Source: a virus (taxonomy: Duplodnaviria; Caudoviricetes). From it: 35,912 bases of DNA. Location: positions 1 to 35,912 of IMG/VR virus record IMGVR_UViG_3300025600_000014. One strand, 5' to 3'. The translations under genes and the position numbers were made by a program. A model generated the notes under the pieces. It was not told the DNA's origin. It saw only the letters and a program-made list of their open reading frames with translations, and ran no database searches. Of the stretch, positions 4,566-31,441 are shown piece by piece. Within the stretch, counting starts at the first letter, position 1. Every line of letters begins with the position of its first letter.

Positions 4566-4585
4566 TGTGTTTTAGGAGGAACAAC

Positions 4586-9148: not shown

Positions 9149-10833
9149 GCATCATAGTTAAATACTCTACTGGCAGTACCTATACTGTTGTTGCGAACAA
9201 GGTGGACATCGAAAAGGTACAGGACCTGGACGGGCAGTTCCATGTACCCTATACCTCAATCGTAGGCATGATGCGGCTGGGACTGGGAGTCCAGAAGATC
9301 ACGGTATCAGGTGACGCTCTAGACATGTCGGCCTGTCTCTGGCATGATGTGGTTGCGATCTCGTTCGACAGCGGGACCTCATATCAGACGGTGTACTTTT
9401 CAGGCGTTCCCTACGCCTCAGATTGTTGGTCCGGTATCTATCCATACATCCTTTCGCTGCTTGCCTCTCCCTTACGCGAGGGCGCGGCGGTCCGTTACCC
9501 CACAACCGGCTACAAATGGGGTAATCAGTCCATCACCGGAATCAGTCAGGCCGGTAACGTCAACGCCTATCCGATTATCCACTACCTTGCCCCTTTGTTT
9601 TACGCTCCTTTGTCGAATACCCCGATAGACTTTGCCGGTCAAGCCGTCACCTTTACGCGTTCTGCCGCTAAAGACCATGCCGGTGTGACCTATCCTGCCA
9701 ATACTCCAATCTTCGATTCCGGCCTCTACCTTGGCAGCGATACCGCACAGGACGTGGCAACGTGGACACCGCCCGCTAGTACCCTGCGGACGGTAGCAAT
9801 GCAAATCAAGCAGACACGGCCCATAACGTTGACCAACCTTATTACGAACGGAGACTTTGAGACCAATACAACGGGATGGTATTGCCCCGATACAACGACA
9901 AGAACCACTGTTTCTCCGCTTGCTGGTACCGCGTCTGCTAAATCCGTAGCCGCTGGGAACGCTGGAACGATGGACTGGGCTGGCGCCACGTTAATTTCGG
10001 GTCACACCTATTATTTTTCGGGTCTGGCAAAAACAACCGCCGCCGCGGGACGCAAGATGAAAATATATGCAGCCGTGGGCGGCGCAGCCCAAAATGGGGC
10101 TTTGGTGGACTGTTCTGTGGCAGCCCATACAGTGCCTATGACCTTTGTTGCCGCAGCAACGAGTGGAGACCTAGTATTTCAGATGGATAGTAATGTTGCC
10201 GGTGAATACTTCCTTCTGGATTCCGTTGTTTTGTATGACTTGACTGCCGCGTTTGGTGGGAACAGTGTCTATATTTGGTCATCGGCAAACAACACACTAC
10301 GGCTTGATTTTGCCTACAACTGCCTCACGTGGACTGACGCGACTACGAATGTCAGCGTTGTTTTTCCCATCTATGTATGGTTGTTGGGCCAAGTATACGG
10401 ACAAATATTGGATGTAGTGGTGATAGAAGATACCTCTCATGCCGTCACCATAGCGGTGCATCCTGATGGCGGTTCGTGGACATCTGCAACTGGAACACTT
10501 GCAGCGCTTACGTGGCCGCAACTGACACTAGGGCCGTTGGAAGGCAGTCTAGCGAACCTCATCCAGTATCCATATGTGCTGACGAGTGCAGAATACCAGG
10601 CCCTAGTCTACTCCTCATTGTCGCTGCTCTACAATACCCTATACGTCGGCAACAGGTACGCGGGAGAAATCGTAAAAGGCTCGGACAAGCGACTTGTCAA
10701 TGCCAATGGCAGCGACATCTCGGCACTCCTAGGCGGTGTGGACATCCCGATTGGATCTAGTGCGGTAACCATTGTGCAGAGTCAAGGCTTGTCGGCTCGC
10801 TGGTATGTGGAACTGAAGAGGACAGACGTATGA
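9145..10833 (+). CDS. Distal tail-like protein with an inserted carbohydrate-binding module
   Basis: Follows the tape measure gene; NLITNGDFETNTTGW..GHTYYFSG..FLLDSVVLYD is CBM_4_9-like. Confidence 0.6.
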   Translation: MSIIVKYSTGSTYTVVANKVDIEKVQDLDGQFHVPYTSIVGMMRLGLGVQKITVSGDALDMSACLWHDVVAISFDSGTSYQTVYFSGVPYASDCWSGIYPYILSLLASPLREGAAVRYPTTGYKWGNQSITGISQAGNVNAYPIIHYLAPLFYAPLSNTPIDFAGQAVTFTRSAAKDHAGVTYPANTPIFDSGLYLGSDTAQDVATWTPPASTLRTVAMQIKQTRPITLTNLITNGDFETNTTGWYCPDTTTRTTVSPLAGTASAKSVAAGNAGTMDWAGATLISGHTYYFSGLAKTTAAAGRKMKIYAAVGGAAQNGALVDCSVAAHTVPMTFVAAATSGDLVFQMDSNVAGEYFLLDSVVLYDLTAAFGGNSVYIWSSANNTLRLDFAYNCLTWTDATTNVSVVFPIYVWLLGQVYGQILDVVVIEDTSHAVTIAVHPDGGSWTSATGTLAALTWPQLTLGPLEGSLANLIQYPYVLTSAEYQALVYSSLSLLYNTLYVGNRYAGEIVKGSDKRLVNANGSDISALLGGVDIPIGSSAVTIVQSQGLSARWYVELKRTDV

Positions 10834-13076: not shown

Positions 13077-13666
13077 TGAGACTAGGAACCCATCCCTCTC
13101 CTGAGGCGCGAGCAAAGATGTCTGCGGCTTGGATTGGACGTGTTGTATCTCTTGAAACTAGAGCAAAGATGTCCGCATTGCATAAAGGACAGAAGGCTTG
13201 GAACAAGGGAATTTCACCGTCAGATGAGACTCGAGCAAAAATCTCTGCTGCGGGAATGGGGCGTATTCCATCCCCTGAAACAAGAGCAAAACAGGCTTTA
13301 GCAGAAAAGGGGAAGACGGTATCACCTGAGACGTGCGCAAGGTTGTCTGCTGCGCTTATTGGAAAACCAGCATGGAATAAGGGTGTTTCCCCGTCAGATG
13401 AAACTCGGGTGAAAATTGGTATAGGACATTGGAAGGGCGGACCAAGGGTATCTATGCGTAAACGTCGTTCCAAGCGCCGCCTACTTGGTTTTAATCCATT
13501 GAACTCTTGGTTTATGGATTGTGAGGCTCACCACATCAACCAGAATGATGTGATTCACATACCGAGGAAGTTGCATCGCAGTATCTACCACGACCAATAC
13601 ACCGGACGGGGCATGGCACAGATGAACGCACTAGCAGGACAGTACCTGATGGAAAACTGGACATAG
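13073..13666 (+). CDS. NUMOD3-repeat HNH-like endonuclease (type A, ~6 repeats)
   Basis: SxETRAK repeats; KRRLLGFNPLN..CEAHH..IHIPRKLHRSIYHDQYTG. Confidence 0.85.
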   Translation: MMRLGTHPSPEARAKMSAAWIGRVVSLETRAKMSALHKGQKAWNKGISPSDETRAKISAAGMGRIPSPETRAKQALAEKGKTVSPETCARLSAALIGKPAWNKGVSPSDETRVKIGIGHWKGGPRVSMRKRRSKRRLLGFNPLNSWFMDCEAHHINQNDVIHIPRKLHRSIYHDQYTGRGMAQMNALAGQYLMENWT

Positions 13667-14039: not shown

Positions 14040-14658
14040 CGTACAAGACGAAACATTTGCGGCGTGGACAGTGGACACCTTACGAGTGTTTCTATTGGCC
14101 AAAATAGCCGACCAGCGCGAAATGCTCCAAGAACGATATCAACAGCAAACGAAGGCCGTTGATGCCGCTTTTTCTTCTCAGCAAACCGCCATGCAAACGG
14201 CGAAGACTGAACAGACCACTGCCATGAATACCGCTCTGGATGCGCAAAAAGACGCTATCAATGCGGCCATGGCGGCAAGTGATAAGGCCACCGCCAAAGC
14301 TGAGACTGCGGCAGATAAACGGTTTGAAGAGAGCAACGGATACCGGCAACAGTTGCAGAATCAGGCTGCGACATTTGCAACCAAGGACGATATGGATGTT
14401 CGGATGAAGGCTTTCTCCGATAAACTCGATTATGAGGCACAACATCTTGAGGACATGGGGAGCGCACGAGACAGGAATATCAGTTCCCTCGAATTGCGTC
14501 TGACGAGTCGACTGGATTTGTCCAAAGGACAGGAGACAGGAACGGATGAGTCGCGCACCAACAAGCGACAGGACACGTCACTTATGGTCTCCCTTGGTAG
14601 TTTTTTGTTAGTCTTAGTCTCTGTTGCAATAGCCGTTATTACCGCGCTATCGAAGTAA
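14029..14658 (+). CDS. Coiled-coil protein with a C-terminal transmembrane helix (lysis module)
   Basis: SD GGAGGG; C-terminal LMVSLGSFLLVLVSVAIAVITAL. Confidence 0.65.
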   Translation: MMSDVQDETFAAWTVDTLRVFLLAKIADQREMLQERYQQQTKAVDAAFSSQQTAMQTAKTEQTTAMNTALDAQKDAINAAMAASDKATAKAETAADKRFEESNGYRQQLQNQAATFATKDDMDVRMKAFSDKLDYEAQHLEDMGSARDRNISSLELRLTSRLDLSKGQETGTDESRTNKRQDTSLMVSLGSFLLVLVSVAIAVITALSK

Positions 14659-14673
14659 TAGGAGCGTGATGAT

Positions 14674-15270
14674 ATGACCCTTGATGAGAAGGCAAGAGAT
14701 TTTAAGAAGTTGCACCCAACTCACAATGGCGGGCCGTGGGATGGGTGGTGCGCCGCACTCATGGCTCGCATGTGTATCGCTTACGGGGATGGCCCCATTC
14801 CCATTCCCGCTTCTGCGAAGATTGCGGCTGGTTTGGCAGGAAAGTTGAATCCCGATGCTTCCAAAGCTCCCATCGGCGCACTCCACTACTGGAAATACGG
14901 CGTCGACGGACATGTTGGTCTCGATACCAAGGGCGGCGGAACATCTGTGTTCATGGCAAGCTCCTATCTCAAAGAATCACTTGGCAACGGACTTGGATTC
15001 CAAAGCGTCACGGGATACACGCGCAATGGAGCATTCCCCTATCTCGGATGGTCGATGCTATATGCGAAGAACGGTAAGATAACTCAGGAGACAGTAGTGA
15101 CAAAACCAACAGCGCCACCAGTCGTTGTAACGTCAACAAGAAGCATTGCGGAGCAGAAGCTTATTGAGCTGAAAATCATTGACCCAGGTCACGACTCCGA
15201 TGGTGTCGTGTCGTGGAACACCCTGGAGTGGTCACTCTATCGTCTGCTACAAGCACTTGGAAAGGCATAG
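14674..15270 (+). CDS. Endolysin, CHAP/NlpC-P60-like Cys-His peptidase
   Basis: GWCAALMAR (Cys), APIGALHYW..GHVGL (His), YLGWS; lies next to the holin. Confidence 0.7.
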   Translation: MTLDEKARDFKKLHPTHNGGPWDGWCAALMARMCIAYGDGPIPIPASAKIAAGLAGKLNPDASKAPIGALHYWKYGVDGHVGLDTKGGGTSVFMASSYLKESLGNGLGFQSVTGYTRNGAFPYLGWSMLYAKNGKITQETVVTKPTAPPVVVTSTRSIAEQKLIELKIIDPGHDSDGVVSWNTLEWSLYRLLQALGKA

Positions 15271-15279
15271 GAGGCAAAC

Positions 15280-15669
15280 ATGGTACCTATCGATTGGAAC
15301 CCCGTTATCCTTGCAATCGTCGCTCTTATCAGCACGGTCATCGTCACGCTGGCTCCCGTGATGGTTACGGCATATATCAACGCACACACGGCAAAGCTCA
15401 TACAGGTGAAAACATTGGCCGACAATAACCAAGACATCGCTAATGGAATTGTGGCGATTGTCCAGAATGCGTATAAGACCTTCACGAACAGCGAGAAGTT
15501 CCAAGCTGCCTTTGAGAAATTGGACGCGCGGCTTCACCTTCCGGCTGGCGAAACACAGCAGTTGATTGAGCAGGCCGTTTCAGTGATGACGCTCACGTGG
15601 GGTGACGCCTGGGAAAAGCTTGGTGAAACGACTCCGACCGAGATTCCTGTGGTTCCTCCTGCGGTATGA
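15280..15669 (+). CDS. Holin (LL-H-like)
   Basis: N-terminal TM helix, then EKFQAAFEKL and QQLIEQAV. Confidence 0.7.
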   Translation: MVPIDWNPVILAIVALISTVIVTLAPVMVTAYINAHTAKLIQVKTLADNNQDIANGIVAIVQNAYKTFTNSEKFQAAFEKLDARLHLPAGETQQLIEQAVSVMTLTWGDAWEKLGETTPTEIPVVPPAV

Positions 15670-15860
15670 CAGAATTGACAAACGGTGATCTTCTCCTGGA
15701 CAACGGCATTGTCATTCCGGCAGCCAAGCGTACCAGGACTGAGGTTTACAGCCGCGTTGTTGGCTATCTGAGGCCTGTTTCCCAGTGGAACAAGGGGAAG
15801 AAGGCTGAATGGGCGGACAGGGTTCCTTTCGCGGTTTCTCCTGCTGTCTTGCACGGCTAG
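15666..15860 (+). CDS. Stand-alone class III RNR (NrdD) C-terminal glycyl-radical domain protein, copy 1
   Basis: EVYSRVVGYLRPVSQWNKGKKAEWADR matches the NrdD RxxGY..N.GK..E...R end; ATGA-coupled to the holin. Confidence 0.85.
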   Translation: MTELTNGDLLLDNGIVIPAAKRTRTEVYSRVVGYLRPVSQWNKGKKAEWADRVPFAVSPAVLHG

Positions 15861-15877
15861 AAAGAGTATTATACTAT
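15849..15877 (+). promoter_or_regulatory. Sigma70-like promoter
   Basis: TTGCAC-17 bp-TACTAT, with an overlapping TATACT. Confidence 0.5.
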
Positions 15878-15878
15878 T

Positions 15879-15967
15879 GGTGGTAGCTAGGATAGGTTCA
15901 TGACCCTCCGAAGCCGGTCTTATCCCCGGTGCTACCGCTTTGTCAAATGGGATGAGAAAGGATAGGT
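15879..15967 (+). ncRNA. Three-way-junction/pseudoknot leader RNA, copy 1
   Basis: P1 GGTGGTAGC/GCTACCGCT, P2, GAA, P3 GCCGG/CCGGT; loop TCTTATCC is complementary to GGATGAGA and GGATAGG downstream. Confidence 0.65.
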
Positions 15968-15976
15968 GAAAGACAA

Positions 15977-16414
15977 ATGGGATATGGACACTCTCAGTCA
16001 GAAGAAACCAGAGCAAAAATATCTGCCGCCAGAAAAGGAATTCCGATAACAGACAAACAGCGATTAGCGCGCATGGGTCATTACGTATCCCCAGAAGCTT
16101 GTGCAAAAATGTCTGTGGCGCAAATGGGCCATTTCGTATCTCCCGAAATGCGTATGAAAATTTCCGTGGCCGTGTGGAGGGGCGGGACACAAGTATGGAC
16201 GCGCAAATCCAAGGCCAAACGTCGCATGTTGGGTTTTGTTCCCATGAATCAACCGTTTGATGGTTGCGAAGCACATCACATCAATCAGAGCGACATCATC
16301 TATATCCCGAGCGAATTGCACCGCAGTATTAGTCATAACCAGTGGACTGGTCGCGGGATGGAACAGATCAATGCTCTTGCTACGGCTTGGCTTACTAGCG
16401 AATTAACTCAATAA
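15977..16414 (+). CDS. NUMOD3-repeat HNH-like endonuclease (type A, ~4 repeats)
   Basis: KRRMLGFVPMN..CEAHH..IYIPSELHRSISHNQWTG. Confidence 0.85.
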   Translation: MGYGHSQSEETRAKISAARKGIPITDKQRLARMGHYVSPEACAKMSVAQMGHFVSPEMRMKISVAVWRGGTQVWTRKSKAKRRMLGFVPMNQPFDGCEAHHINQSDIIYIPSELHRSISHNQWTGRGMEQINALATAWLTSELTQ

Positions 16415-16418
16415 AGTT

Positions 16419-16595
16419 GACCCGGAAGATTCAGCGCGGCAACGCCTTCCGGGTCGTGTGAACTTCTGCCTCTGCCACTTGGCAGAGACGCTGGAGGTGC
16501 AATTTGAGTACACGCACCAGCACGTCAGGGCGTAGCTCCTGGCGCGTCTTATCTTGTACCATACTTTCTGCATTTTTCACGTGCAATCGTTCACA
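16419..16595 (+). ncRNA. Candidate structured intergenic RNA
   Basis: GACCCGGAAG/CTTCCGGGTC, TGTGAAC/GTTCACA, CTCTGCC/GGCAGAG, AGACGC/GCGTCT and CGTCAGG/CCTGGCG. Confidence 0.45.
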
Positions 16596-16613
16596 TTTGA
16601 AAAAGGTTGGCGC

Positions 16614-16916
16614 GTGGTAATCATCACCGTGGAACGTGTACCGCGCAAGATGTTGGCGGTGTATGCAGATAAGGATGGCAATATCCCGCTCGGGGTAACA
16701 CTGACCCCCAGTAAGGACGATCGATTCAAGAAAATAGAGATCCTGGTTCAAGAGAAACTACCCCAGTACAAAGCTCGCCTTGTGCTTGCGCATGAGTTGT
16801 TCCATGCGTACCAATATCTGGCGGGGTGCGCGATGGAGGAGCAGGCCAATAACGAGATCGATGTGGTCATGGTCAAGGCCCTCGTCGACAAGAAGAAGCG
16901 CAAGGGGAAGCGTTGA
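16614..16916 (+). CDS. Small HExxH zinc-metallopeptidase-like protein (ImmA/IrrE-like)
   Basis: VLAHELFHAY followed by EEQAN; GTG start after AAAGG. Confidence 0.6.
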   Translation: MVIITVERVPRKMLAVYADKDGNIPLGVTLTPSKDDRFKKIEILVQEKLPQYKARLVLAHELFHAYQYLAGCAMEEQANNEIDVVMVKALVDKKKRKGKR

Positions 16917-17698
16917 GACTCATCGAAGCAAGCGACAAGCGCAAGGCCGTATACCTTCTGCCGCTTGGCGACGTCCATGCCGGTTCGGGCCAGACAGATT
17001 ACCAGAAATTCGAAGGGTATATCGATTGGGCAAAGCGCGAGAAGGCATACATTTTCCTCATGGGAGACATGTTCGACACAGTAGTCATGGGCGGCGTTTC
17101 CAGTCCATTTGACGCATCCATGAATCTCAGAGAGGCGAAAAAGTACATGAAAGACCGGCTCATGCCCGTAAAGCATCTTATCATCGGGGGTATCATAGGC
17201 AACCACGAAATGCGACTCATGCGCTATGCCAATGAAGATCTGATGGAAGACCTCTGTGATACGCTCGGGGTTCCCTACGCCAGGTTCTCTGCGGTTCTCC
17301 GATTGAACATCGGACGCAAAACGGGCGACGGCGGAAAGACCGATACAACGCGCGTCCACTATGTTGCCTATTGTCATCACACGACGGGCGGCGGCGGGAC
17401 ACCCGGGGGCAGATTGAACCGGGTCTATAAGCTCTCAGACATTTTCGAAGGGGCCGACGTGCTCATCGGTGCTCATAATCACATGCAGGCGGGTGTGCCA
17501 GTTGATAAGTACCGGCTCCATGTATCTGCATCGGGAAAGGCAACCCTCAGTGCAGATAAGCAGTTCCTCGTTGACTCGGGTTCTTTTGTCAAATGGAATG
17601 AGTCGTATGCAGAAGAGAAAATGCTTGCCCCTTCCCATTGCGGCTGTCCACGAATTCGACTGGATGGTGCGCGTAAGGACGTCCACGTCTCGGAATAG
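16913..17698 (+). CDS. Calcineurin-like metallophosphoesterase
   Basis: LGDVH, MGD..D, GNHE, HH and AHNH motifs. Confidence 0.9.
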   Translation: MRLIEASDKRKAVYLLPLGDVHAGSGQTDYQKFEGYIDWAKREKAYIFLMGDMFDTVVMGGVSSPFDASMNLREAKKYMKDRLMPVKHLIIGGIIGNHEMRLMRYANEDLMEDLCDTLGVPYARFSAVLRLNIGRKTGDGGKTDTTRVHYVAYCHHTTGGGGTPGGRLNRVYKLSDIFEGADVLIGAHNHMQAGVPVDKYRLHVSASGKATLSADKQFLVDSGSFVKWNESYAEEKMLAPSHCGCPRIRLDGARKDVHVSE

Positions 17699-17700
17699 TA

Positions 17701-18093
17701 TCGTGACGCAGTAGTCCACGGTTGCAACCTATGGGACATCCGTGGCAGGCCAGCGAGCCAGCACTAATAGTGCCTGCGTTCTCAGATGGCGACAGTCTGA
17801 GATTAAATGGTTACGGGCCAGCCAGGATTAAGGCAACAGCCCCCGCCAGGACTGACCTCTCGCGCTTATCTTCCAAAAACTAGGATCGGGCGCACCAAAT
17901 CAGGCGGGATGAACGGCCCGAAATGCTGGGGTTCAAGTTCCCCGCTAAGCGTGATGTTTGAGTTGTAAGCAATTTCTTTACAACTGGTTCCCGCCGTTCA
18001 CCATATTGCCTTAGCGGGCCAAGCTGAAGATGCCGCGCGATAGGGCGTTCGGCCAGTCGTACCCCCAGCCTGTTCGGTGACTGGGGGTCTTTT
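17701..18093 (+). ncRNA. Candidate large structured ncRNA
   Basis: No credible ORF; more than ten short helices including long-range ones; ends in a terminator. Confidence 0.55.
18061..18093 (+). terminator. Intrinsic terminator ending the late transcription unit
   Basis: ACCCCCAG...CTGGGGGT followed by CTTTT. Confidence 0.75.
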
Positions 18094-18947
18094 CATGTCC
18101 ACTTGGCTCTAGGCAGTTTGTTCCAGTATTGCCCAGAAAGGTTAGTATTCATGGAGCAGAACGGCACTATCCGATGGAGTTATCCATTTGGCATAACACG
18201 TTTCGTGTTACACCGCATGATGTGTACGAACCTTTAAGCCGGTTAAGGTTGCGGGGTACTTGATTGGTACGTTGATAAGGCCACTATTATCGGATAACCC
18301 CGAAAACTAAAATAGCGGCACTCGCTATTATCGTTTGGGATAGATACGGATTTGAGTATACATCTCAGATGGCAAATTGTACCCTTCGTGCGTTTAATGC
18401 ACATCTGTCCATCTATCTGCATATTTTGGACATATCCTTCTGCATATGGGCATGGCGGGTACACATCATTATTGTAACTTTCCTGCGTTCAGGGGTATTC
18501 CATATACGGCTATGCACGCTTTTGACAAGTTGATGCAAAAAATGCACCTACTCGAACTCACGAGGATTCCTCGTATGTTCCTTAGAAATATTTGAAGTAT
18601 CCGGTTTTTCCAGACGGTTGGTCCTGATTTCTGTGGTCAAAGCTAGAAATAGCCCCGTTAAAGTGTTGTGGTCACATGTTGCAGGCCATTGTTGTGACGA
18701 AATGGTCAGGCGAACCGTCTGCGCTAAATATACATTTTTGTATATTTCAAGCATATGCGTTGCAGAAAATTGTCGCAAGTTGTCACAGTAACCCCACTCT
18801 ACCCTGTACTGCCATTTTATAGGAGAATTGGCGGCAATAAACGTCCATTCATACAGCGAGATATGAAAACCCCGCAAAACGCACAGAAATGGCATTAGCC
18901 GCAATATGTATAAACAGTATTGACAACTTGCCACATTTATGGCACAT

Positions 18948-18976
18948 TTGCCACAGTTCCGATTTTGTGTTATACT
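18948..18976 (+). promoter_or_regulatory. Early promoter (sigma70, extended -10) overlapped by TTGCCACA direct repeats
   Basis: TTGCCA-17 bp-TATACT with TG at 18968-69; TTGCCACA at 18928 and 18948. Confidence 0.7.
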
Positions 18977-19254
18977 AAAAAGGACGTAGCGTACCCAACC
19001 CCACTTCGGCAAAAGTGGGGTTTCCTTATACCCACTCCCCACTGTGAAGATTATGCTATTTTCATTCACAATCATGCTGTTCACAAAATAGAAATCGGAT
19101 TAAGATATTAGCAGCAAGGGGAACAAGGGTTCCCAACCGTAAGCGAAAGTAGCGCACTGATAACTCAAAAAGGCTCCCGATACCAGACACCATCACGATA
19201 GTTGGCTACTCGGTCCCAGAATGCGATCTAAAAATCTAACCAAAGGAGATAGAT

Positions 19255-19524
19255 ATGACGAATCGAATGGTTGTCTTAACCGGCTACCGCATGGAATCAC
19301 TTAAACGGCACGACCGCAAGAAGTACGACCGCTTGAATGAAATGGTTTCAGATGGACTTAGAGACAGTCCCGAACCCGACATCGAGTGGAACTCTACGGT
19401 TGGCAGACTGGAACCCAAACCCGACCCTGAACCCGATCGTTGTGCTTGGGTATGCCCTAGTACCTGTCGTAATTGTCTCGTTGAAAACTGTGCCGATAGA
19501 CTGGCGGGAGGGGTCAATGAATGA
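19255..19524 (+). CDS. Hypothetical early protein with a Cys-rich C-terminus
   Basis: SD AAGGAG; CAWVCPSTCRNCLVENC. Confidence 0.7.
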   Translation: MTNRMVVLTGYRMESLKRHDRKKYDRLNEMVSDGLRDSPEPDIEWNSTVGRLEPKPDPEPDRCAWVCPSTCRNCLVENCADRLAGGVNE

Positions 19525-19642
19525 AGAACAGAAAGAAGCAATAGAAATCATTCTGTGCGCTGTTTCGCGTCAAGAGATATACCTCTCGACCGCCATGAAA
19601 CAGATCGAAGCAATCTGGCCGAAAGCGGCGGGAGGTGAGTGA
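19517..19642 (+). CDS. Small hypothetical protein
   Basis: SD GGAGGGG; overlaps both neighbours. Confidence 0.55.
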   Translation: MNEEQKEAIEIILCAVSRQEIYLSTAMKQIEAIWPKAAGGE

Positions 19643-19881
19643 TGCTAAGTAGTGGACAGGTGACAGCATTGGACGCCGTCAAGGTTTCGGTCGCTCGCAA
19701 GTTTTCTTATGACCGCTCAGACGGCAACGGGAATCGAGAAGCGGGACTGACATTGCGATGCAGAATTGGAGAGCCGGTTACCATCACTGGCCATTGCCAG
19801 ACGGTTGACGAACTCGAATACGCCGTGGCTCGTCTCATTGCCACAGCAAGAAGGGAGGTGGGGCATGGCAAAGCAGTGTAA
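19639..19881 (+). CDS. Hypothetical protein
   Basis: SD GGAGGTG; coupled start. Confidence 0.6.
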   Translation: MMLSSGQVTALDAVKVSVARKFSYDRSDGNGNREAGLTLRCRIGEPVTITGHCQTVDELEYAVARLIATARREVGHGKAV

Positions 19882-20092
19882 CCCACTACGTGAGTGGAGG
19901 TGGAACAGAATGATGACGACCGCCAATGCTGCGCGAGAACTTGGATTGCTCCCTGAAACATATCGGACTCTTGAATATCTGCCAAGCAAACTGAGTATCA
20001 CCACTGACACAATCTTGCACATCGCAAGCATAACACACATCCCGCTGGAAGTCCTCGTAGACTATCTCGAATCGAACCACGCCCCTGCTTGA
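19865..20092 (+). CDS. Cro/XRE-type helix-turn-helix regulator
   Basis: LREWRWNRMMTTANAARELGLLPETYRTLE..TILHIASITHIPLEVL; SD GGAGGTG. Confidence 0.7.
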   Translation: MAKQCNPLREWRWNRMMTTANAARELGLLPETYRTLEYLPSKLSITTDTILHIASITHIPLEVLVDYLESNHAPA

Positions 20093-20116
20093 CATGAACC
20101 CGATTCCGAGTACAAT
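20089..20116 (+). promoter_or_regulatory. Sigma70-like promoter
   Basis: TTGACA-16 bp-TACAAT. Confidence 0.75.
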
Positions 20117-20121
20117 ATATA

Positions 20122-20208
20122 CAGCAGCCTAGCGTGGCGTAATTAACCACGTGAAACTAGACTCCTTTCTAGGGGCTGCTGCCATCAAAACAAAGGAGAC
20201 AAAGGAGT
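20122..20208 (+). ncRNA. Three-way-junction/pseudoknot leader RNA, copy 2
   Basis: P1 CAGCAGCC/GGCTGCTG, P2 GCGTGG/CCACGT, GAAA, P3 CTAG/CTAG; loop ACTCCTTT is complementary to AAAGGAG and AAAGGAGT (SD). Confidence 0.7.
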
Positions 20209-20216
20209 GTGAGACA

Positions 20217-20756
20217 ATGAAGCTTGGACAGCACATGACAGACGAACAGCGAGCCAAAGAGTCTGCGTCAAAATTGGGGCATACCACATCAATTGAAACG
20301 CGGGCAAAGATATCTTCGACGCGCATGGGGATTAGACCATCACCTGAAACGCGGGCAAGGGTATCTGAAATCCTTATGGGCCACGTCGTTACCCCCGAGA
20401 CGCGAACAAAGACGTCAGCATGGCAACAGGGGCGCAAACTTTCGCCTGAAACGTGTGCGAAGATAGCTATTGCGCATTGGAGGGGCGGTCAGAAAATGGC
20501 CGACGCCAGAACTCGCGCCAAGCGCCGCACGCTCGGTTTCAATCCTCTGAACTCTCCCCTTTCGGGATGTGAGGGTCATCACGTCAATCGGCTTGACGTC
20601 ATCTATATGCCCACAAAACTACATCAAAGCATCCATCACAATCAGCATACTGGCAGAGGAATGGCGCAGATGAACGCCATTGCCTACAATTTTCTATTCA
20701 AACAAGAGGTGGAAGCCGCAATCGCGGCAAAGGAGACAACCAATGTTAGTGGCTAA
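20217..20756 (+). CDS. NUMOD3-repeat HNH-like endonuclease (type A, ~5 repeats)
   Basis: ATG 20217 after the SD; KRRTLGFNPLN..CEGHH..IYMPTKLHQSIHHNQHTG. Confidence 0.85.
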   Translation: MKLGQHMTDEQRAKESASKLGHTTSIETRAKISSTRMGIRPSPETRARVSEILMGHVVTPETRTKTSAWQQGRKLSPETCAKIAIAHWRGGQKMADARTRAKRRTLGFNPLNSPLSGCEGHHVNRLDVIYMPTKLHQSIHHNQHTGRGMAQMNAIAYNFLFKQEVEAAIAAKETTNVSG

Positions 20757-21570
20757 GAACGAGGGTAGCGAACGCATCCTTATACCGGCCGGAACACACG
20801 TCGCGCGTTGCTATGGAATGATTGATCTGGGAACGCAATATTCAGAGAAGTTCGGGAACTGGAGTCACAAAATCCAGGTACAGTTTGAACTCTGTAACGA
20901 ATTAATGGATGATGGCAGACCTTTGGCTATTAGCAAGAAATATACGCTCAGCCTTAACGACAAGGCTAGCCTGAGGAAAGACCTTGAAAGCTGGTTGGGA
21001 AGAGGCATCACCGAGAAAGAAGAGAAAGCGGGGTTCGCGCTTGGTTCTATGTTGGGCGCTCCGTGTTTGCTCTCCGTGATTCATGCTGAGAGTGGCGGCA
21101 AGACGTACGCGAACGTGGCGGGCGTGATGTCTGTACCAAAAGGAACAACCGTGCCCGAACAGAGCAATCCTATGATTTCCTATGATGTGGAAAATGGAAA
21201 GGATGTGGTGTGGGAAAAGCTGCCCGAATGGATCCGAACCATGATTGAGCAGAGCAAGGAGTTCAAGGACGGCGACGAACCGACACCCGAAGAAGCTGCC
21301 GACACCTCTATGCCGTTTCCCGACATTCCCGAAGAGTCGACCGAACCAGCCACACCACCTGAGACCTATATCTACGGTCCTAAGACCTATACCCGTGAGG
21401 AGTGGTTGGACAGTCTGCATCAAGCGTCTGCATTTGACCATCTGCCCGAACCTGCAGATATGGATGCCATGAAGCATGATGACCTACTGGCGGCTGGCAA
21501 GGTGATGATCAAGCAGTTGCAGGACTTCTGCGCGACGAACAAGAAGAAAACAGAAAAGAAGGCCTCGTGA
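20743..21570 (+). CDS. Phage ssDNA-binding/replication-associated protein (NGO0469-like)
   Basis: IPAGTHVARCYGMIDLGTQ..YTLSLNDKASLRKDLESW..G.PC.LSV.H..YANV, followed by an acidic linker. Confidence 0.6.
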   Translation: MLVAKNEGSERILIPAGTHVARCYGMIDLGTQYSEKFGNWSHKIQVQFELCNELMDDGRPLAISKKYTLSLNDKASLRKDLESWLGRGITEKEEKAGFALGSMLGAPCLLSVIHAESGGKTYANVAGVMSVPKGTTVPEQSNPMISYDVENGKDVVWEKLPEWIRTMIEQSKEFKDGDEPTPEEAADTSMPFPDIPEESTEPATPPETYIYGPKTYTREEWLDSLHQASAFDHLPEPADMDAMKHDDLLAAGKVMIKQLQDFCATNKKKTEKKAS

Positions 21571-21571
21571 A

Positions 21572-21757
21572 ATGGTCACAGCCGAAGAACTTGCAATCCT
21601 CAAAAAGTCGCCCCATGAGCTGGCGGTTACCGTGGCTCTGCTATGTCTGGCGAATGGTATCCCGGCAGTCAAGGTCCTGGAGGACGTGTACCGTGAGGGT
21701 CAAAGGTCGGTAACCGACGATCCACAGGCATGGGGACTAATTGGAGGCAGGGCGTGA
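21572..21757 (+). CDS. Hypothetical protein
   Basis: Tightly packed ORF in the early operon. Confidence 0.55.
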   Translation: MVTAEELAILKKSPHELAVTVALLCLANGIPAVKVLEDVYREGQRSVTDDPQAWGLIGGRA

Positions 21758-21915
21758 GATATAGAATACATCATTTTGTGCTAGCAGAATTGGCCGAGGA
21801 CAACTTTATCGTATCCGGCGACACCATAGAAGAAGTCCGGGCAGCGGCGAAACGGGAACTGGCAAGAAGGGGTTGGAAAGAAGAAGATTGTTGGTCGGAG
21901 GACTTGCCATGCTGA
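21754..21915 (+). CDS. Hypothetical protein
   Basis: SD GGAGG; GTGA overlap with the previous gene. Confidence 0.55.
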   Translation: MRYRIHHFVLAELAEDNFIVSGDTIEEVRAAAKRELARRGWKEEDCWSEDLPC

Positions 21916-22325
21916 CCCCTCCCTGCAACACGCAAGCGAACGAGTACATCGACAAGATGTTTGCTGCCCTGTCAACGCTTGGCACCCTGAATGAGCTGTA
22001 CCGTACCGAATTGGGTGATGCTATCAACAAGTCTGCCGCCTTCAAGCTACTGTATGCCACGGTGTTGATTGAAGAAAAGGCGGGGCCGGACGTCAAGGTC
22101 ACCGTCGACGAACTCAAAGCCAAAGTCACGAAGCGCGTCAACGCCGCCGAAAAGGTTGCCGATATTGCCGAAGCCCTCAGTAAGGGTACCAGGGAGGCGA
22201 TGGAGCTGCAGAAAGAAACGATCGGGGCCTGTCAGTCGGCCCTTGCCTACGCCAAAGCAGAACTGGAAGCAACGCCGAACGCAAACCCACCGAACCATGA
22301 GCCATTGTTTGGAGGTGTGACATGA
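21909..22325 (+). CDS. Hypothetical coiled-coil protein
   Basis: SD GGAGG; helical sequence. Confidence 0.6.
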   Translation: MLTPPCNTQANEYIDKMFAALSTLGTLNELYRTELGDAINKSAAFKLLYATVLIEEKAGPDVKVTVDELKAKVTKRVNAAEKVADIAEALSKGTREAMELQKETIGACQSALAYAKAELEATPNANPPNHEPLFGGVT

Positions 22326-22546
22326 GCGAGAAAACAATCCGCACCATTACCATCAAGGCCGAGGGTGAACTTGGGCTTACCCCCGATGTTGCTGGGCTGA
22401 TATCCTCTTGCGTCAAAATGCACGCCGAGAATGGAAGGGAGACGGGCGACCTGTACTTCCAAGACTTACACGTCACCTATTCTTATGCTGAGCACAAGGT
22501 GGTCAAGAAGGGGCCGAAGAAGAAGCCCGTGGAGGTATCCGTATGA
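22322..22546 (+). CDS. Hypothetical protein
   Basis: SD GGAGGTG; ATGA overlap. Confidence 0.6.
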   Translation: MSEKTIRTITIKAEGELGLTPDVAGLISSCVKMHAENGRETGDLYFQDLHVTYSYAEHKVVKKGPKKKPVEVSV

Positions 22547-22710
22547 ACACCTTGACCGCTCTTGAATTACGCAAGCACGACCTCCGGCAGGACCTGGTAC
22601 ATACTGCGAAAACCTATGGAAAGGCCGCCCGGGAGACGGCGAAGATTATGCACAAGATCCAGGAAGTGCAGCGGGCAGAAAGTTATCTCAAAAGGGAGAT
22701 GACAACATGA
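22543..22710 (+). CDS. Small hypothetical protein (55 aa, not in the ORF track)
   Basis: SD GGAGGT; ATGA overlaps at both ends. Confidence 0.55.
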   Translation: MNTLTALELRKHDLRQDLVHTAKTYGKAARETAKIMHKIQEVQRAESYLKREMTT

Positions 22711-22868
22711 TCATTTTCATTCTCTGGTTCATTCTCTGTCTCATGGTGGCTGGACTTTGGAGCTGGAAGGGCAGAAGTTACGCAGGTGGGTTTTGGCTTA
22801 GCTTCTTCTTTTCCCCATTGGTCGGATTCATTGTTGGGATTTGTCTTGCCCCGGCAAGGCGGGCATGA
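22707..22868 (+). CDS. Small two-TM membrane protein (53 aa, not in the ORF track)
   Basis: MIIFILWFILCLMVAGLWSWKGRSYAGGFWLSFFFSPLVGFIVGICLAP; ATGA overlaps. Confidence 0.65.
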   Translation: MIIFILWFILCLMVAGLWSWKGRSYAGGFWLSFFFSPLVGFIVGICLAPARRA

Positions 22869-23344
22869 GTACCTTGATCCCGGCAGAGAATAAGTTTCAT
22901 AAAGGTAATGGCGCGGACGGGAAGCACTACTGGTTAACCCCGCCCGCCCTGTTCCAACGATTGTTGGCGCGATTTGGTTTTACCTTTGACCCCTGTCCTT
23001 ATCCAAAGCCCGATGACTTCGACGGTTTGACTTGTGAGTGGGAATCATCTAACTATGTCAACCCCCCCTTTGGATCCATTATTCACCAAGGGAAAAAGAA
23101 GGGGCCGACGGCGTGGGCTAGAAAGGCGATTGAGGAAAACAAGAAGGGGAAGCGCGTTGTTCTTGTCTATCCGATTGATAAGTGGATATTGATGCTGTTG
23201 GCGGCTGGCGCGACAGTAGAGAACCTTGGGGACGTAAGGTGGCTTGCGACAGAGGATGGTTCTGAGGGGAAAGGAACGGGGCGGCACATAGCCTGTTTCA
23301 TTTTGGAACCGCCCCCCATCTCTACAAACGGTAATTTACGGTGA
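22865..23344 (+). CDS. Phage DNA N6-adenine methyltransferase (Dam-like)
   Basis: WLTPP..F..FDPCP..DGL..W..YVNPPF (NPPF catalytic motif). Confidence 0.8.
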   Translation: MSTLIPAENKFHKGNGADGKHYWLTPPALFQRLLARFGFTFDPCPYPKPDDFDGLTCEWESSNYVNPPFGSIIHQGKKKGPTAWARKAIEENKKGKRVVLVYPIDKWILMLLAAGATVENLGDVRWLATEDGSEGKGTGRHIACFILEPPPISTNGNLR

Positions 23345-23374
23345 TGGAAAATCTGCCCGCTATTCATGCGGCAT

Positions 23375-23502
23375 CCAGCAAAGGGTATACACTAGGGGGT
23401 ATCAACTGTTTCCAAAATGGAAATAGCTCAGACAGAACAACTGGGCATCCATCGATAGTCTAGACGAACATACCCCCCCCCGGCGCGAGTCCCCGCTGCT
23501 GG
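23375..23502 (+). ncRNA. Candidate multibranch structured element
   Basis: CCAGCA/TGCTGG encloses GGGGGTAT/ATACCCCC, CTGTTTCCA/TGGAAATAG and CTCAG/CTGGG. Confidence 0.4.
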
Positions 23503-23503
23503 G

Positions 23504-23531
23504 TTGTGCGGCTAGTCGTTTCTGCTATACT
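23504..23531 (+). promoter_or_regulatory. Promoter (extended -10)
   Basis: TTGTGC-16 bp-TATACT with TG at 23523-24. Confidence 0.55.
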
Positions 23532-23537
23532 GATATG

Positions 23538-23621
23538 GGAGACGGCTTGGGACAGTTAGCTACTGTTCGACAGCCGACCATACCGGCGCCGCCTCCATCT
23601 TTCTTTTGTATGGTGTATGGT
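23538..23621 (+). ncRNA. Three-way-junction/pseudoknot leader RNA, copy 3
   Basis: P1 GGAGACGGC/GCCGCCTCC, P2 GGACAGT/ACTGTTC, GACA, P3 GCCG/CGGC; loop ACCATAC is complementary to tandem GTATGGT GTATGGT. Confidence 0.65.
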
Positions 23622-23706
23622 GAGAGTCTTGTGCGGAGCCTCCCACCAATAGGAATGGCAAAATCCTAACTAGGTTTGGAGGTGAGTATGTACTGCTCAG
23701 CGGCAA

Positions 23707-24741
23707 ATGAGTCTTGAAAATCCCCAACTTGAAGACGGCCACCTTAGGATCGTCAACAGCATAGCCGAAACCCTTGCGCGTACCCAGTTGTCCGGGTACG
23801 AGTCGCGGGTTTTATGGTTTCTCTGGCGCAAGACCTATGGCTGGTCGAAGAAAACCGACCTTATAAGTCTAAGCCAGTGGGTTGATGGGACTGGCATATG
23901 CAAGCAACATGTCGCCACCACTATCAAGCGTCTTGTCCAGCGCAACATCATCATCAAGTACGCCGGACGCAAAGCGACCGTAACCGAAATCGGTAATGAT
24001 AGGGGCGTAACCGAAATCGGTTACGGCGTTATCTGTATGTATGAATTCAACAAGCGTTATGGCACTTGGCAATCGTTACCGAAATCGGTTACGTTACCGA
24101 AATCGGTTACGGAGGTGGTACCGAAATCGGTACCCACAACAGATACTCTTACAACAGATAAAGGATTAAAAGAAAAAGATTGCGCCGAAAATGAAAAAAC
24201 CGGCGCTCCTCTCTTCGAAAATCTTCCTGAAGTCATCAAAGAACCAGAGACTAAACCAGACAAGGCAATCCAGGTTACGACTTCTGTTCCCTATCTGTTG
24301 GCTTCCTGGTTCTATTCCTCGCGCGGTATTCCCGCTCAGCCCACCCCTGCCGATATGCGGAACTTTAAGCTGTTGTTGCAGTTCTACTCTGAGTCTGTCA
24401 TCAAAAAGGGTATTGAGTGGCGACTTACCTCTGATTCTGATGGGTATTGGACAACGCATATTTCGTCTGCTTCTATCTATCGCAACTTTGGCAACTGGAT
24501 GGCAGAATCGTCAGTCAAGGCAATCAGTCTGAGACAATGGGTTCAGCAGAATCCCGACATGGACTTTGATCGTTTCGTTGACCCTCTTGCCCGCGCTGAT
24601 GCTTTTATGCGGGCGTTCAATGAGGCGAAGAAGAATCGGCTGGTGTACTTTGAAGACGCAGACTATGCCATGTACAAGAAGGCAATCCGCATTAAGACAG
24701 CGGAATCCAAAGCAGAGACAAAGGAGGTAAATCGTGGTTGA
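23707..24741 (+). CDS. Replication initiator, lambda O-like (Phage_rep_O N-terminus)
   Basis: PQLEDGHLRIVNSIAETL..LSGYESRVL..LWRKTYGWSKK.D.ISLSQ; internal iterons. Confidence 0.85.
   Translation: MSLENPQLEDGHLRIVNSIAETLARTQLSGYESRVLWFLWRKTYGWSKKTDLISLSQWVDGTGICKQHVATTIKRLVQRNIIIKYAGRKATVTEIGNDRGVTEIGYGVICMYEFNKRYGTWQSLPKSVTLPKSVTEVVPKSVPTTDTLTTDKGLKEKDCAENEKTGAPLFENLPEVIKEPETKPDKAIQVTTSVPYLLASWFYSSRGIPAQPTPADMRNFKLLLQFYSESVIKKGIEWRLTSDSDGYWTTHISSASIYRNFGNWMAESSVKAISLRQWVQQNPDMDFDRFVDPLARADAFMRAFNEAKKNRLVYFEDADYAMYKKAIRIKTAESKAETKEVNRG
23979..24134. repeat. Replication-origin iterons: five copies of palindromic ACCGAAATCGGT
   Basis: Copies at 23983, 24010, 24078, 24096 and 24120, followed by an A-rich tract. 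Confidence 0.85.
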
Positions 24742-25102
24742 ATATACGGGCCTGGAAAAAAGCAAGCAGTTGGCAAAGATGCAATTTATGAAGAAAGATG
24801 AAGGTTATCCCTGTGACGCAATATACATGGGTAAGTACGACTATTCGCTGGACACGAGTTTTGTCGAACAGTTTGCCAATACAAAATTGTATGAATACCC
24901 CGCCTACCGTGCCGACACGCTTCTATCGTGGCTTCTGGGACGTGGGTATTTTGAATATATCATGGCAAACGCCGCAGATGAAATAGTAGTGGCATTCAGT
25001 GACAGTGCCTTTCCTATCGGCACGGTTGAAACGAGGGCAAAAACCCTTGCTGACGCTCTGGCAGACGTTGTGTTCACCGTTCTTGCCTCGCGCCCGAGGT
25101 GA
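24734..25102 (+). CDS. Hypothetical protein
   Basis: SD AAGGAGGT; GTG start. Confidence 0.65.
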   Translation: MVEYTGLEKSKQLAKMQFMKKDEGYPCDAIYMGKYDYSLDTSFVEQFANTKLYEYPAYRADTLLSWLLGRGYFEYIMANAADEIVVAFSDSAFPIGTVETRAKTLADALADVVFTVLASRPR

Positions 25103-25106
25103 AGTG

Positions 25107-25553
25107 ATGGACGAAATCAGTAGCGTTATGGGGCGTCTTGCTCAGTTAAGCCGGAACATAGAACCTCTCGAGATGCTTGTGCGTGAGGAACTGGCAGGAA
25201 TGGATGATCATACGTTTTGGACGTCTGTTTGTCACGGCGACATCGTGGACGCGCTTGAGGAGGTACCCGAAGGAACTCACCTGTTCCAGTGTGCCTGGGG
25301 CAACCGCGAGATATTCTCTGAGCGGAACAATCCGCACCATTACATGATTGCCAAAGATCCCGGGGTTCCAGTACGCAGAAGCGAGCCGAAGCCCGAGATT
25401 CAAGTCAACGTCGCACAACTGGCGCGGTTTGTTATGGCTTGTCCCTATGAGGGAACAGAGCGGTGTCCACGGCGGAACTTTGCATTTGCTGATACAAGCA
25501 AAGAAGAGAAACGGAAAGAGAAACAACTGGCCTGGCCTGAGGAGGTAAAATGA
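25107..25553 (+). CDS. Hypothetical protein
   Basis: SD GAGGTG; operon packing. Confidence 0.6.
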   Translation: MDEISSVMGRLAQLSRNIEPLEMLVREELAGMDDHTFWTSVCHGDIVDALEEVPEGTHLFQCAWGNREIFSERNNPHHYMIAKDPGVPVRRSEPKPEIQVNVAQLARFVMACPYEGTERCPRRNFAFADTSKEEKRKEKQLAWPEEVK

Positions 25554-25981
25554 CTAAGGTTGAGGAACTGCGCGGACACATAGTTGATATGGCGGATGGC
25601 GTTTCGTTTTCGGAAATTACCTGCTTTCTTGGATTGCTTGATTCTTATGCCGCCGTTTCCCATGCCGAAGGCGTGGCAGAAGGGGAGCGCGATAAGGGAC
25701 TACAAGGGAGCAATTTCCGAAAGGTGGCCAACTTATTGTCAGAAGCGAACGCCAAACTTGTTACCGCTCGTGCCGAAGGCGTGGCAGAGGGGGAAGAGCA
25801 GGAGAGGGAGAGGATAGTAGCAGTTGGCTCCCGTGGTTTAGTATTGCATGATGGAGACCTGTTGGTTGGAGGCGTGCCGGAATTGCGAAAGAAGTTTTCG
25901 ACAGAGGGGTACGTATACATCGTTGCCGCATCTGCTCTCGCTCCGAACGTCCTCGCGCCCACAAAGGAGGTGGCGGGATGA
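25550..25981 (+). CDS. Hypothetical protein with an internal AEGVAEGE duplication
   Basis: SD GGAGGT; TGCCGAAGGCGTGGCAGA occurs twice. Confidence 0.6.
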   Translation: MTKVEELRGHIVDMADGVSFSEITCFLGLLDSYAAVSHAEGVAEGERDKGLQGSNFRKVANLLSEANAKLVTARAEGVAEGEEQERERIVAVGSRGLVLHDGDLLVGGVPELRKKFSTEGYVYIVAASALAPNVLAPTKEVAG

Positions 25982-26250
25982 ATCAGTATGACAGCATGAC
26001 TGTTGATGAACTGTTGTTTGAGTATGCGGAATGGGCGCGTAACCATGCTGGAACTCATTGGGAGATACATGGGGAAAAGGGCGTGGTTGTTGATGATGAG
26101 AATCCGTTGAATGTGGTGGCAAGAAAACATGCCCTTGTTGCCGCCCTTCGTCGCAAGGTTATCGAAGAGGCAAGCGTGGGGGTGGTGAAACTGTCGCATA
26201 ATGGTGTGGCAAGCGACTACGACATCGTTCCTCACAAGGAGACCACATGA
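25978..26250 (+). CDS. Hypothetical protein
   Basis: SD AAGGAGGTG; ATGA overlap. Confidence 0.6.
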   Translation: MNQYDSMTVDELLFEYAEWARNHAGTHWEIHGEKGVVVDDENPLNVVARKHALVAALRRKVIEEASVGVVKLSHNGVASDYDIVPHKETT

Positions 26251-26444
26251 CAGAGTTGCAGAACGGTGATCTCCAACTGGACAACGGTGTCATCATCCCG
26301 GCAGCCAAGCGTACCAGGTGTGAGGTCTATAGCAGGGTTGTTGGTTATTTGAGACCCGTAGCCCAGTGGAACAAGGGGAAGAAGGCGGAATGGGCGGATA
26401 GAATATGCTTTACGGCCACAACAACGCCAAAGGAGACCAAATGA
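26247..26444 (+). CDS. Stand-alone class III RNR (NrdD) C-terminal glycyl-radical domain protein, copy 2
   Basis: CEVYSRVVGYLRPVAQWNKGKKAEWADR; SD AAGGAG. Confidence 0.85.
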   Translation: MTELQNGDLQLDNGVIIPAAKRTRCEVYSRVVGYLRPVAQWNKGKKAEWADRICFTATTTPKETK

Positions 26445-26851: not shown

Positions 26852-27316
26852 GTGAGTATGAGCGTAGTATTGCGTAGGAAGGTTAGTGGGCAAGTTGTCA
26901 GGGTCGAATCGTCGGTCGACAAGCCGAAACGCAAGAAGAGAACCCCGCGTCAGATCGAGGATGATTTATGTTGTACCCTCTGGTCCGCGGCGGTCAGGAC
27001 CCGAGATGGATATGTCTGTCAGTATTGTGGAACCCCCACGAAGAAAGCGGAGGCACACCATATCTTCACGCGTCAGCACAAGTCAACAAAGTTTGATCTG
27101 GACAATGGGATCACTCTCTGCTGGCCCTGCCATAAGTATCGTGCAGTCAGTGGCGATTTTGCATACTGGGAACAGCATCAATGGCTTGGGCTTAAGAAAT
27201 GGGAAGCGTTACACGCCAGGACAATGGCAACGGTTAAGACAACGGACGCCTGGTATGCCGAACAGGAAGCGCAATTGCGGGCGAAACTTGAAAAGTTGCA
27301 GGCGGTGATGACATGA
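26852..27316 (+). CDS. NinG/Rap-like HNH nuclease
   Basis: DDLCCTLWSAAVRTRDGYVCQYCG..EAHH..KFDLDNGITLCWPCH plus a NinG-like helical tail. Confidence 0.75.
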   Translation: MSMSVVLRRKVSGQVVRVESSVDKPKRKKRTPRQIEDDLCCTLWSAAVRTRDGYVCQYCGTPTKKAEAHHIFTRQHKSTKFDLDNGITLCWPCHKYRAVSGDFAYWEQHQWLGLKKWEALHARTMATVKTTDAWYAEQEAQLRAKLEKLQAVMT

Positions 27317-30858: not shown

Positions 30859-30859
30859 G

Positions 30860-31441
30860 ATGCCAACGGGAATATACGTACGGACAGAAGCGCAGAAGAG
30901 GAACATTTCTGCTGGCATGATGGGAAACCAAAACCGCCTTGGGGGTCACGTTTCAGATGAAACCAAAGCAAAGATTTCTGCGACAATGGCGGGCGTATCC
31001 AAGTCCGATGAGACAAGGGGGCACATGTCAATTGCTCAAGTGGGGCACCCAGTATCCCTTGACGCTCGTGCAAACATGTCTATGGCACAGAGAGGGAACA
31101 CAAACAGGCGGGGCCGCCACCTTGTTTACTCAGAAGAAACTTGGGCAAGGTTGTCCGCTGCCCACATGGGTTTAGGTTGGAAGGGCGGTCCAATGGCATT
31201 TAGGCGCAGGTCTAAGGCTAAGCGCCGCTTGCTCGGGTTTGTTCCATTGAATGAGTGCTTTGTTGGTTGCGAAGGGCATCACATTGACAACGAACGGGTC
31301 ATCAATATGCCTCACGCTCTGCATCGTAGCGTTTACCATAATCAGCATACTGGACAGGGCATGGCAAAGATTAACGCGATTGCCTACAACTTCCTTTTCA
31401 AGCAGGAAGTAGAAGAGGCATTGGAGGCAAGACGTGGCTAA
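30860..31441 (+). CDS. NUMOD3-repeat HNH-like endonuclease (type A, ~5 repeats)
   Basis: KRRLLGFVPLN..CEGHH..INMPHALHRSVYHNQHTG. Confidence 0.85.
   Translation: MPTGIYVRTEAQKRNISAGMMGNQNRLGGHVSDETKAKISATMAGVSKSDETRGHMSIAQVGHPVSLDARANMSMAQRGNTNRRGRHLVYSEETWARLSAAHMGLGWKGGPMAFRRRSKAKRRLLGFVPLNECFVGCEGHHIDNERVINMPHALHRSVYHNQHTGQGMAKINAIAYNFLFKQEVEEALEARRG

Follow-up and report, generated by a model that had tools for sequence, protein, structure and literature searches.

Two stand-alone NrdD-type glycyl-radical-loop genes in a phage and a split class III ribonucleotide reductase in its likely Caldisericota host

The window, which is the whole stretch of DNA analysed here (35,912 nucleotides, IMG/VR record IMGVR_UViG_3300025600_000014), is a phage record of 100% completeness. 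It has direct terminal repeats and genes of siphovirus type for head, tail, lysis and replication. It also carries two small genes, copy 1 and copy 2, whose products (P0001 and P0002) resemble the glycyl-radical loop of NrdD, the class III ribonucleotide reductase (RNR). An earlier note made from the sequence alone had described two stand-alone NrdD Gly-loop genes for proteins of 64 and 65 aa, and both open reading frames (ORFs) were found intact where it had placed them (Table 1). Contigs from the public run X1, from which the record may derive, span both genes with their flanks. Between stops the two frames measure 77 and 80 codons, and neither gene is therefore the tail end of a longer frame. 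As the earlier note had also said, one copy is coupled to the holin and the other lies in the early replication region: the start of copy 1 and the stop of the PF09682 holin gene share an ATGA, and copy 2 closes the string of small early/replication genes, 1.5 kb downstream of the O-like initiator. Copy 2 has a strong Shine-Dalgarno sequence (AAGGAG), shares an ATGA overlap with its upstream ORF and overlaps its neighbours on both sides.

P0001 and P0002 cover only positions 531–562 of the 562 positions of the Pfam NRDD family (PF13597), above its cut-off, and only positions 548/549–579 of the 581 of TIGR02487, far below the full-length cut-offs. PF13597 is their sole Pfam match at E ≤ 0.01, the pyruvate formate-lyase (PFL)-type Gly_radical family PF01228 does not match them, and an NCBIfam search at E ≤ 1 returned NrdD models only. 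Their best sequence matches in the PDB are the C-termini of single-chain NrdDs (E 0.002, 0.002 and 0.15). The predicted radical site of P0001 is Gly33, within R30-V-V-G33-Y34. Both the sequence and an AlphaFold2 model place the RxxGY loop in a hairpin followed by a helix; in the single-chain model of P0001, strands 25–29 and 34–37 surround Gly33 and a helix spans residues 43–50 (mean predicted local distance difference test 76.5, predicted template modelling score 0.36). With 64 residues and that score the model alone is too small to inform a structure search, in which Foldseek gave no hit at E ≤ 0.001 and VIA wide none at Z ≥ 2. Neither protein combines barrel, finger loop and zinc site on one chain as a single-chain NrdD does. 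Each is a free-standing small ORF, and the phage genome contains no other PF13597 match, no radical-SAM match and no match to the class I/II RNR family PF02867. These results agree with the earlier note, which had seen no barrel or activase and had proposed profile searches; those gave the C-terminal NrdD match and no PF01228 match.

The host is likely, though not certainly, Candidatus (Ca.) Cryosericum of the Caldisericota. This assignment follows from gene matches, DNA matches, an imperfect spacer and shared peat runs. In the best 80 of at least 433 cellular matches, the 13 best loci belong to or group with Caldisericota, and the top 10 are of Cryosericum type and 73–87% identical to the phage protein. 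Matches to the phage DNA are concentrated in Cryosericum-type genomes. A spacer between two repeats of the type of clustered regularly interspaced short palindromic repeats (CRISPR) in genome G090 pairs imperfectly with the window (Table 1). An array with 15 copies of this repeat is found in genome G002, which holds the Ca. Cryosericum septentrionale record L071; the 14 spacers of that array match neither the window nor any of 62 viral loci. The phage is present in peat metagenome runs, and host-type alleles of the small gene occur in the same runs. The anaerobic host proposed in the earlier note is upheld.

Judging from its genes, the class III RNR of this likely host is split: the barrel includes the zinc ribbon, and a separate gene encodes the radical loop. 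The Caldisericota split barrel (about 683 aa) has an ATP-cone, an NxN flap and an MCCR finger loop and ends after the zinc ribbon. In the Cryosericum-type locus the order is nrdD (barrel), a gene of 470–480 aa, a 65-aa gene and nrdG2, and the adjoining NrdG2 scores above the TIGR02495 cut-off. The 470–480-aa protein is conserved, has a hydrophobic N-terminus and gave no Pfam or NCBIfam match. The 65-aa genes, which databases, where they name them, mostly list as (anaerobic) ribonucleoside-triphosphate reductase or hypothetical protein, are orthologues of the phage genes, of which the phage has two without barrel or activase; the product of the G090 gene is identical to P0001 at 45 of 54 positions and to P0002 at 43 of 54. 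The phage proteins align to the split-type host protein over their full length, N-terminal extension included, whereas the fused NrdDs of the phylum scan align to them only from residue 23–25 onward. The boundary of the small protein matches the end of the barrel. On TIGR02487 (581 positions) the G090 barrel covers 1–551 and P0001 covers 549–579, and in the alignment the split barrels end after CxxH..CxxC, where fused NrdDs go on into (T/C)EVYSR. We use 'small subunit of split class III RNR' as a descriptive label, which is taken from no database.

The split is common in the phylum. PF13597 matches were found in 68 of 93 Caldisericota genomes, of which 50 have a barrel ending at model position 521–538, 16 a fused NrdD, one a short zinc-bearing piece only and one a match below cut-off. 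In 49 of the 50 barrel-type genomes an orthologue of the small gene accompanies the loop-less barrel and NrdG (44 intact, 5 interrupted by an intron), and in the remaining genome the barrel lies at a contig end. No fused NrdD was seen in any of the 50. The five interrupted genes (Table 1) have an insertion in the Tyr codon directly after the radical Gly codon, with the group I hallmarks of an exon-end U and a terminal G; both exons are present in four, and one lies at a contig end. The insertions also contain what we take to be conserved group I intron elements. The intron of L218 (about 870 bp) contains a LAGLIDADG ORF, and Rfam gave no match to these introns. The small gene is adjacent to the barrel, 1.5 kb or 7 kb away, behind nrdG, or unlinked. 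This variable spacing rules out that the host makes a fused NrdD by readthrough or splicing, and it suggests that any active enzyme needs the small chain in trans. Nine further loci from other phyla have the split arrangement, and a barrel tree requires at least three changes between the split and the fused state. Class I or dimeric class II RNR (PF02867) was found in none of 23 Cryosericum-type genomes and monomeric class II RNR (TIGR02505) in none of five, all of them metagenome-assembled genomes (MAGs), in which absence is not proven.

Both phage genes probably encode the same small radical-bearing piece, and the phage protein probably serves as a trans-acting extra subunit of the host's two-gene class III RNR. 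Because the host NrdD is split and no class I/II RNR was found, such a subunit would serve what looks like the only RNR of the host instead of repairing a single-chain enzyme. The earlier note had offered both ideas. Its suggestion that the proteins complement a naturally split NrdD is supported by the host genomes. Its GrcA-like repair of an O2-cleaved single-chain NrdD does not fit the likely host group, as no fused NrdD was found in the 50 barrel-type genomes. Repair of that kind has a precedent in YfiD and Y06I (PMC8683613, in the part consulted), and a fused NrdD stands beside an extra small gene in 9 of the 80 cellular loci (e.g. L093), although these extra proteins have their own zinc ribbon. 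The missing fused NrdD in barrel-type Caldisericota and the full-length match of the phage proteins to the split-type host protein make it highly unlikely that this phage rescues a cleaved single-chain NrdD.

The loci with a fused NrdD and an extra gene come from Patescibacteria-type and Pacearchaeota records (L091, L093, L094, L097, L098, L107, L125, L137 and L143). There the extra gene, of about 92–95 aa (one is called at 121 aa), encodes a zinc ribbon and a Gly loop and precedes nrdG. As candidates for a spare part truly like GrcA, these genes rank first.

Short phage genes of this type form a family. A homologue search restricted to proteins of 35–112 aa gave 1422 matches, and the 62 viral loci comprise 13 with a full-length NrdD and 49 with short genes; unlike phages with a full nrdD, the present phage has neither barrel nor activase. 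The earlier note had counted it as refuting if homologues were always broken remnants beside a full nrdD. That was not the pattern seen: in a search of whole records, all 36 viral records covered gave one short match and no barrel, and 11 of these records have a completeness of at least 90%. The other 13 short-gene loci, which lay outside this search, are six from near-copies of this phage, four other near-duplicates and three contigs below 5 kb. Both copies together occur in two other IMG/VR records (L005 with L010, L006 with L011). Most related phages have the short gene in their early region, ahead of a 3D-domain gene; in L012, L013, L021 and L024 it lies between terminase and portal, and in L022 after a holin-like gene. 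GenBank phages gave three weak matches, which are a 144-aa zinc-ribbon type protein (ANMV-1), a full NrdD (PhiF1) and one unannotated protein, and the ESM Atlas gave PF13597 clusters only. The ANMV-1 protein, from a published archaeal virus, is a stand-alone zinc-ribbon and Gly-loop protein annotated as anaerobic RNR (Table 1). Stand-alone proteins of the same make-up, with no barrel nearby, are also present in the Desulfobacterota-type loci L108, L110, L114 and L121.

The occurrence of the gene at three or more genome positions, both early and late, might be expected if the radical or the fold had another use, such as an O2 sink, packaged cargo or a non-barrel partner, and a PFL-type glycyl-radical enzyme (PF01228) is present in four of five hosts. 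However, neither phage protein matches PF01228, activases are reported to be specific for their Gly loop (PMC13450708, in the part available), and the phage sequence closely tracks the host NrdD subunit, so we regard such a use as very improbable. Late positions in several phages would also suit a decoy or inhibitor, which titrates NrdG or blocks the barrel and so alters host nucleotide metabolism; small phage proteins that mimic a host subunit can act as inhibitors. This idea is disfavoured and, in our estimate, has little probability: Gly33, Tyr34 and the loop are identical to those of the host protein, and the phage, which has no RNR of its own, would rely on the deoxynucleoside triphosphates (dNTPs) of the host.

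P0001 and P0002 are identical at 46 of 52 positions. In the first 53 codons the two genes differ at 15 codons synonymously and at 7 non-synonymously, and the ratio of non-synonymous to synonymous substitution rates (dN/dS) is 0.10. Among 19 distinct phage genes the proportion of non-synonymous differences is below that of synonymous differences in 171 of 171 pairs, with a median dN/dS of 0.083 over 96 unsaturated pairs; L033 was left out of this set and of the tree by a motif filter, and L013 as identical to L012. The purifying selection suggested by the earlier note therefore holds between the copies and among homologues, where dN/dS is not near 1. Its view of an early plus late duplication with two timings or roles was not supported, because the copies are not each other's nearest relatives. 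Over codons 17–55 they are 81% identical, and copy 1 is 86% identical to genes of other phages and 85% to a host gene; moreover, each of the 36 other viral records searched has a single copy, either early or late. The two copies are most likely a mosaic that arrived with two different gene modules and not a recent duplication, although the tree is too weak for proof.

The same data bear on whether the genes are neutral captured remnants, or a replacement piece in a phage attachment site for integration into the host small gene. nrdD is the attachment site of some Tn7-like elements (bioRxiv 2025.07.27.667033, in the part consulted), and copy 1 shares an exact run of 47 nt with a host gene. That run length is reached in 4.7% of codon shuffles, though, and runs of 50 and 53 occur in other phages. 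dN/dS is 0.08–0.10, and each gene is complete and has a start of its own. A tyrosine integrase was found in none of 10 near-complete phages and a resolvase-type recombinase in none of five. The shuffle result, the dN/dS values and the lack of integrase or resolvase largely refute this explanation, and we consider it extremely improbable.

Several points weigh against an extra subunit for the host enzyme. The host already encodes its own small subunit and would have to run short of it. The host assignment is indirect: the G090 spacer has six mismatches and comes from a remnant of two repeats, and the MAGs that represent the host come without a stated completeness. All 121 homologues collected keep the radical Gly, for which the phage genes use three different codons, but this conservation is partly circular because the homologues were gathered by similarity. 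The protein tree, in which 6 of 47 branches are starred, has too little resolution to show the direction of transfer. Finally, the late placement in several phages suits a role in making DNA precursors less neatly than the early placement does.

The closest known systems include GrcA/YfiD (E. coli) and Y06I (phage T4), which are autonomous glycyl-radical cofactors for PFL. Like them, the phage protein is a small free-standing Gly-loop chain that has no barrel and would depend on a host activase. YfiD and Y06I act in trans on PFL, and T4 is a phage that carries such a part, according to the part of PMC8683613 consulted. In contrast to them, the present protein has an NrdD-type loop (PF13597) and no PF01228 domain and is about half their size, and the barrel presumed to be its partner is always made without the loop, so that the protein would be a normal subunit and not a rescue piece. 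It shares the RxxGY loop and the following helix with single-chain NrdDs (T. maritima, 4COI/4U3E; P. copri, 8P23; phage T4), and the Tyr after the radical Gly is conserved, compare Tyr712 of PcNrdD (PMC11226230, as far as available). Unlike in these, the zinc ribbon remains on the barrel, only loop and tail are separate, and about 20 N-terminal residues are extra. The class II RNR NrdJa/NrdJb is another RNR naturally encoded as a barrel and a separate C-terminal chain (PMC9669993, in the section consulted). No description of a split class III RNR was found in the literature searched, of which passages of PMC12288474, PMC4390871, PMC2795772 and bioRxiv 2022.04.23.489257 were part; RNRdb notes, theses or subscription papers may mention one. 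In the sources consulted, a radical-carrier part of this kind has so far been shown for one other enzyme only, PFL, and the passages seen of a 2026 review state that whether spare-part proteins exist beyond PFL is yet to be determined (PMC13450708).

In class III enzymes, as described in passages of PMC12662201, PMC11226230 and PMC4493059, NrdG removes a hydrogen from the Gly of the loop when the domain lies outside the barrel, the loop then returns to generate a thiyl radical, and O2 cuts the chain at the loop Gly. For the phage protein, host NrdG2 with S-adenosylmethionine would put the radical on Gly33, and the hairpin of residues 25–37 would dock into the barrel to yield the thiyl radical. 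O2 would then cleave only the 7-kDa chain and leave the barrel reusable. With cleavage confined to this chain, a fresh small piece could reload the intact barrel. A phage without its own RNR may in this way gain dNTP supply through the apparently sole host RNR, at a cost of 195 bp of DNA per copy.

Other parts of the window (Table 1) show further features. Eight endonuclease-like ORFs, seven with NUMOD3 and one further HNH type, are scattered over the 36-kb genome. A region of about 1.5 kb without a convincing gene contains hairpins, varies among many contigs of related phages and gave nothing in Rfam at E ≤ 1; it is possibly an origin, a control region or a noncoding RNA. Promoter and terminator counts in window 14500–20500 were no more than chance, and neither a tRNA nor an Rfam family was found in the window. 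The NGO0469-family protein (NF046043) has DNA matches of 65–67% in 13 Caldisericota genomes, and the sole inspected matching locus, L223, has no obvious phage genes. A BspA-type leucine-rich repeat (LRR) protein and a pectate-lyase-like ORF, near a collagen-repeat fibre gene, have DNA matches of 68–77% to Caldisericota genes and are possibly host-derived adhesion modules.

Table 1. Positions of the two Gly-loop genes and of other features (positions refer to the window unless a locus is named)
Feature	Position	Strand	Remarks
Copy 1 (P0001, 64 aa), stand-alone NrdD glycyl-radical-loop protein	15666..15860	+	PF13597/TIGR02487 C-terminal match
Copy 2 (P0002, 65 aa), second stand-alone Gly-loop protein	26247..26444	+	PF13597/TIGR02487 C-terminal match
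Holin	15280..15669	+	PF09682 E 1.9e-6, above cut-off; stop overlaps copy 1 start
O-like replication initiator	23707..24741	+	PF04492 E 1.2e-21; marks early region containing copy 2
Imperfect protospacer (30/36) for G090 spacer	9734..9769		Spacer between two CRISPR-type repeats in Caldisericota G090
Endonuclease-like ORFs (NUMOD3 x7, other HNH x1)	298-1038, 1810-2406, 13073-13666, 15977-16414, 20151-20756, 30845-31441, 34144-34806, 26852-27316		
Region without convincing gene	17700-19250		
NGO0469-family protein	20680-21570		NF046043
BspA-type LRR protein and pectate-lyase-like ORF	3801-5548		
Host small-gene introns	L217:1514-1733, L218:1257-2131, L219, L220:891-1104, L221		Genomes G065-G069
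Host 470-480-aa protein	L066:6543-7961, L227:2761-4209		Between barrel and small gene
ANMV-1 zinc-ribbon and Gly-loop protein	L239:2177-2611		

On balance we lean towards a wider picture in which Cryosericum and many other anaerobes would have a two-chain class III RNR with its O2-labile radical on an exchangeable 7-kDa cartridge. To boost or protect dNTP synthesis, phages would ship this cartridge alone, early and late in infection. If so, this RNR would be the first example of a glycyl-radical enzyme whose radical subunit is detachable, and the cartridge would be the first autonomous radical cofactor outside PFL and a one-domain auxiliary metabolic gene. The split NrdD makes the spare-part question testable with three expressible proteins (barrel, 65-aa subunit and NrdG2), would offer a small natural substrate for radical installation by NrdG, and accounts for many short database entries named anaerobic RNR. 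The finding suggests that phages of anaerobes support host nucleotide synthesis through a 195-bp gene of a size that would be lost to fragment filters.

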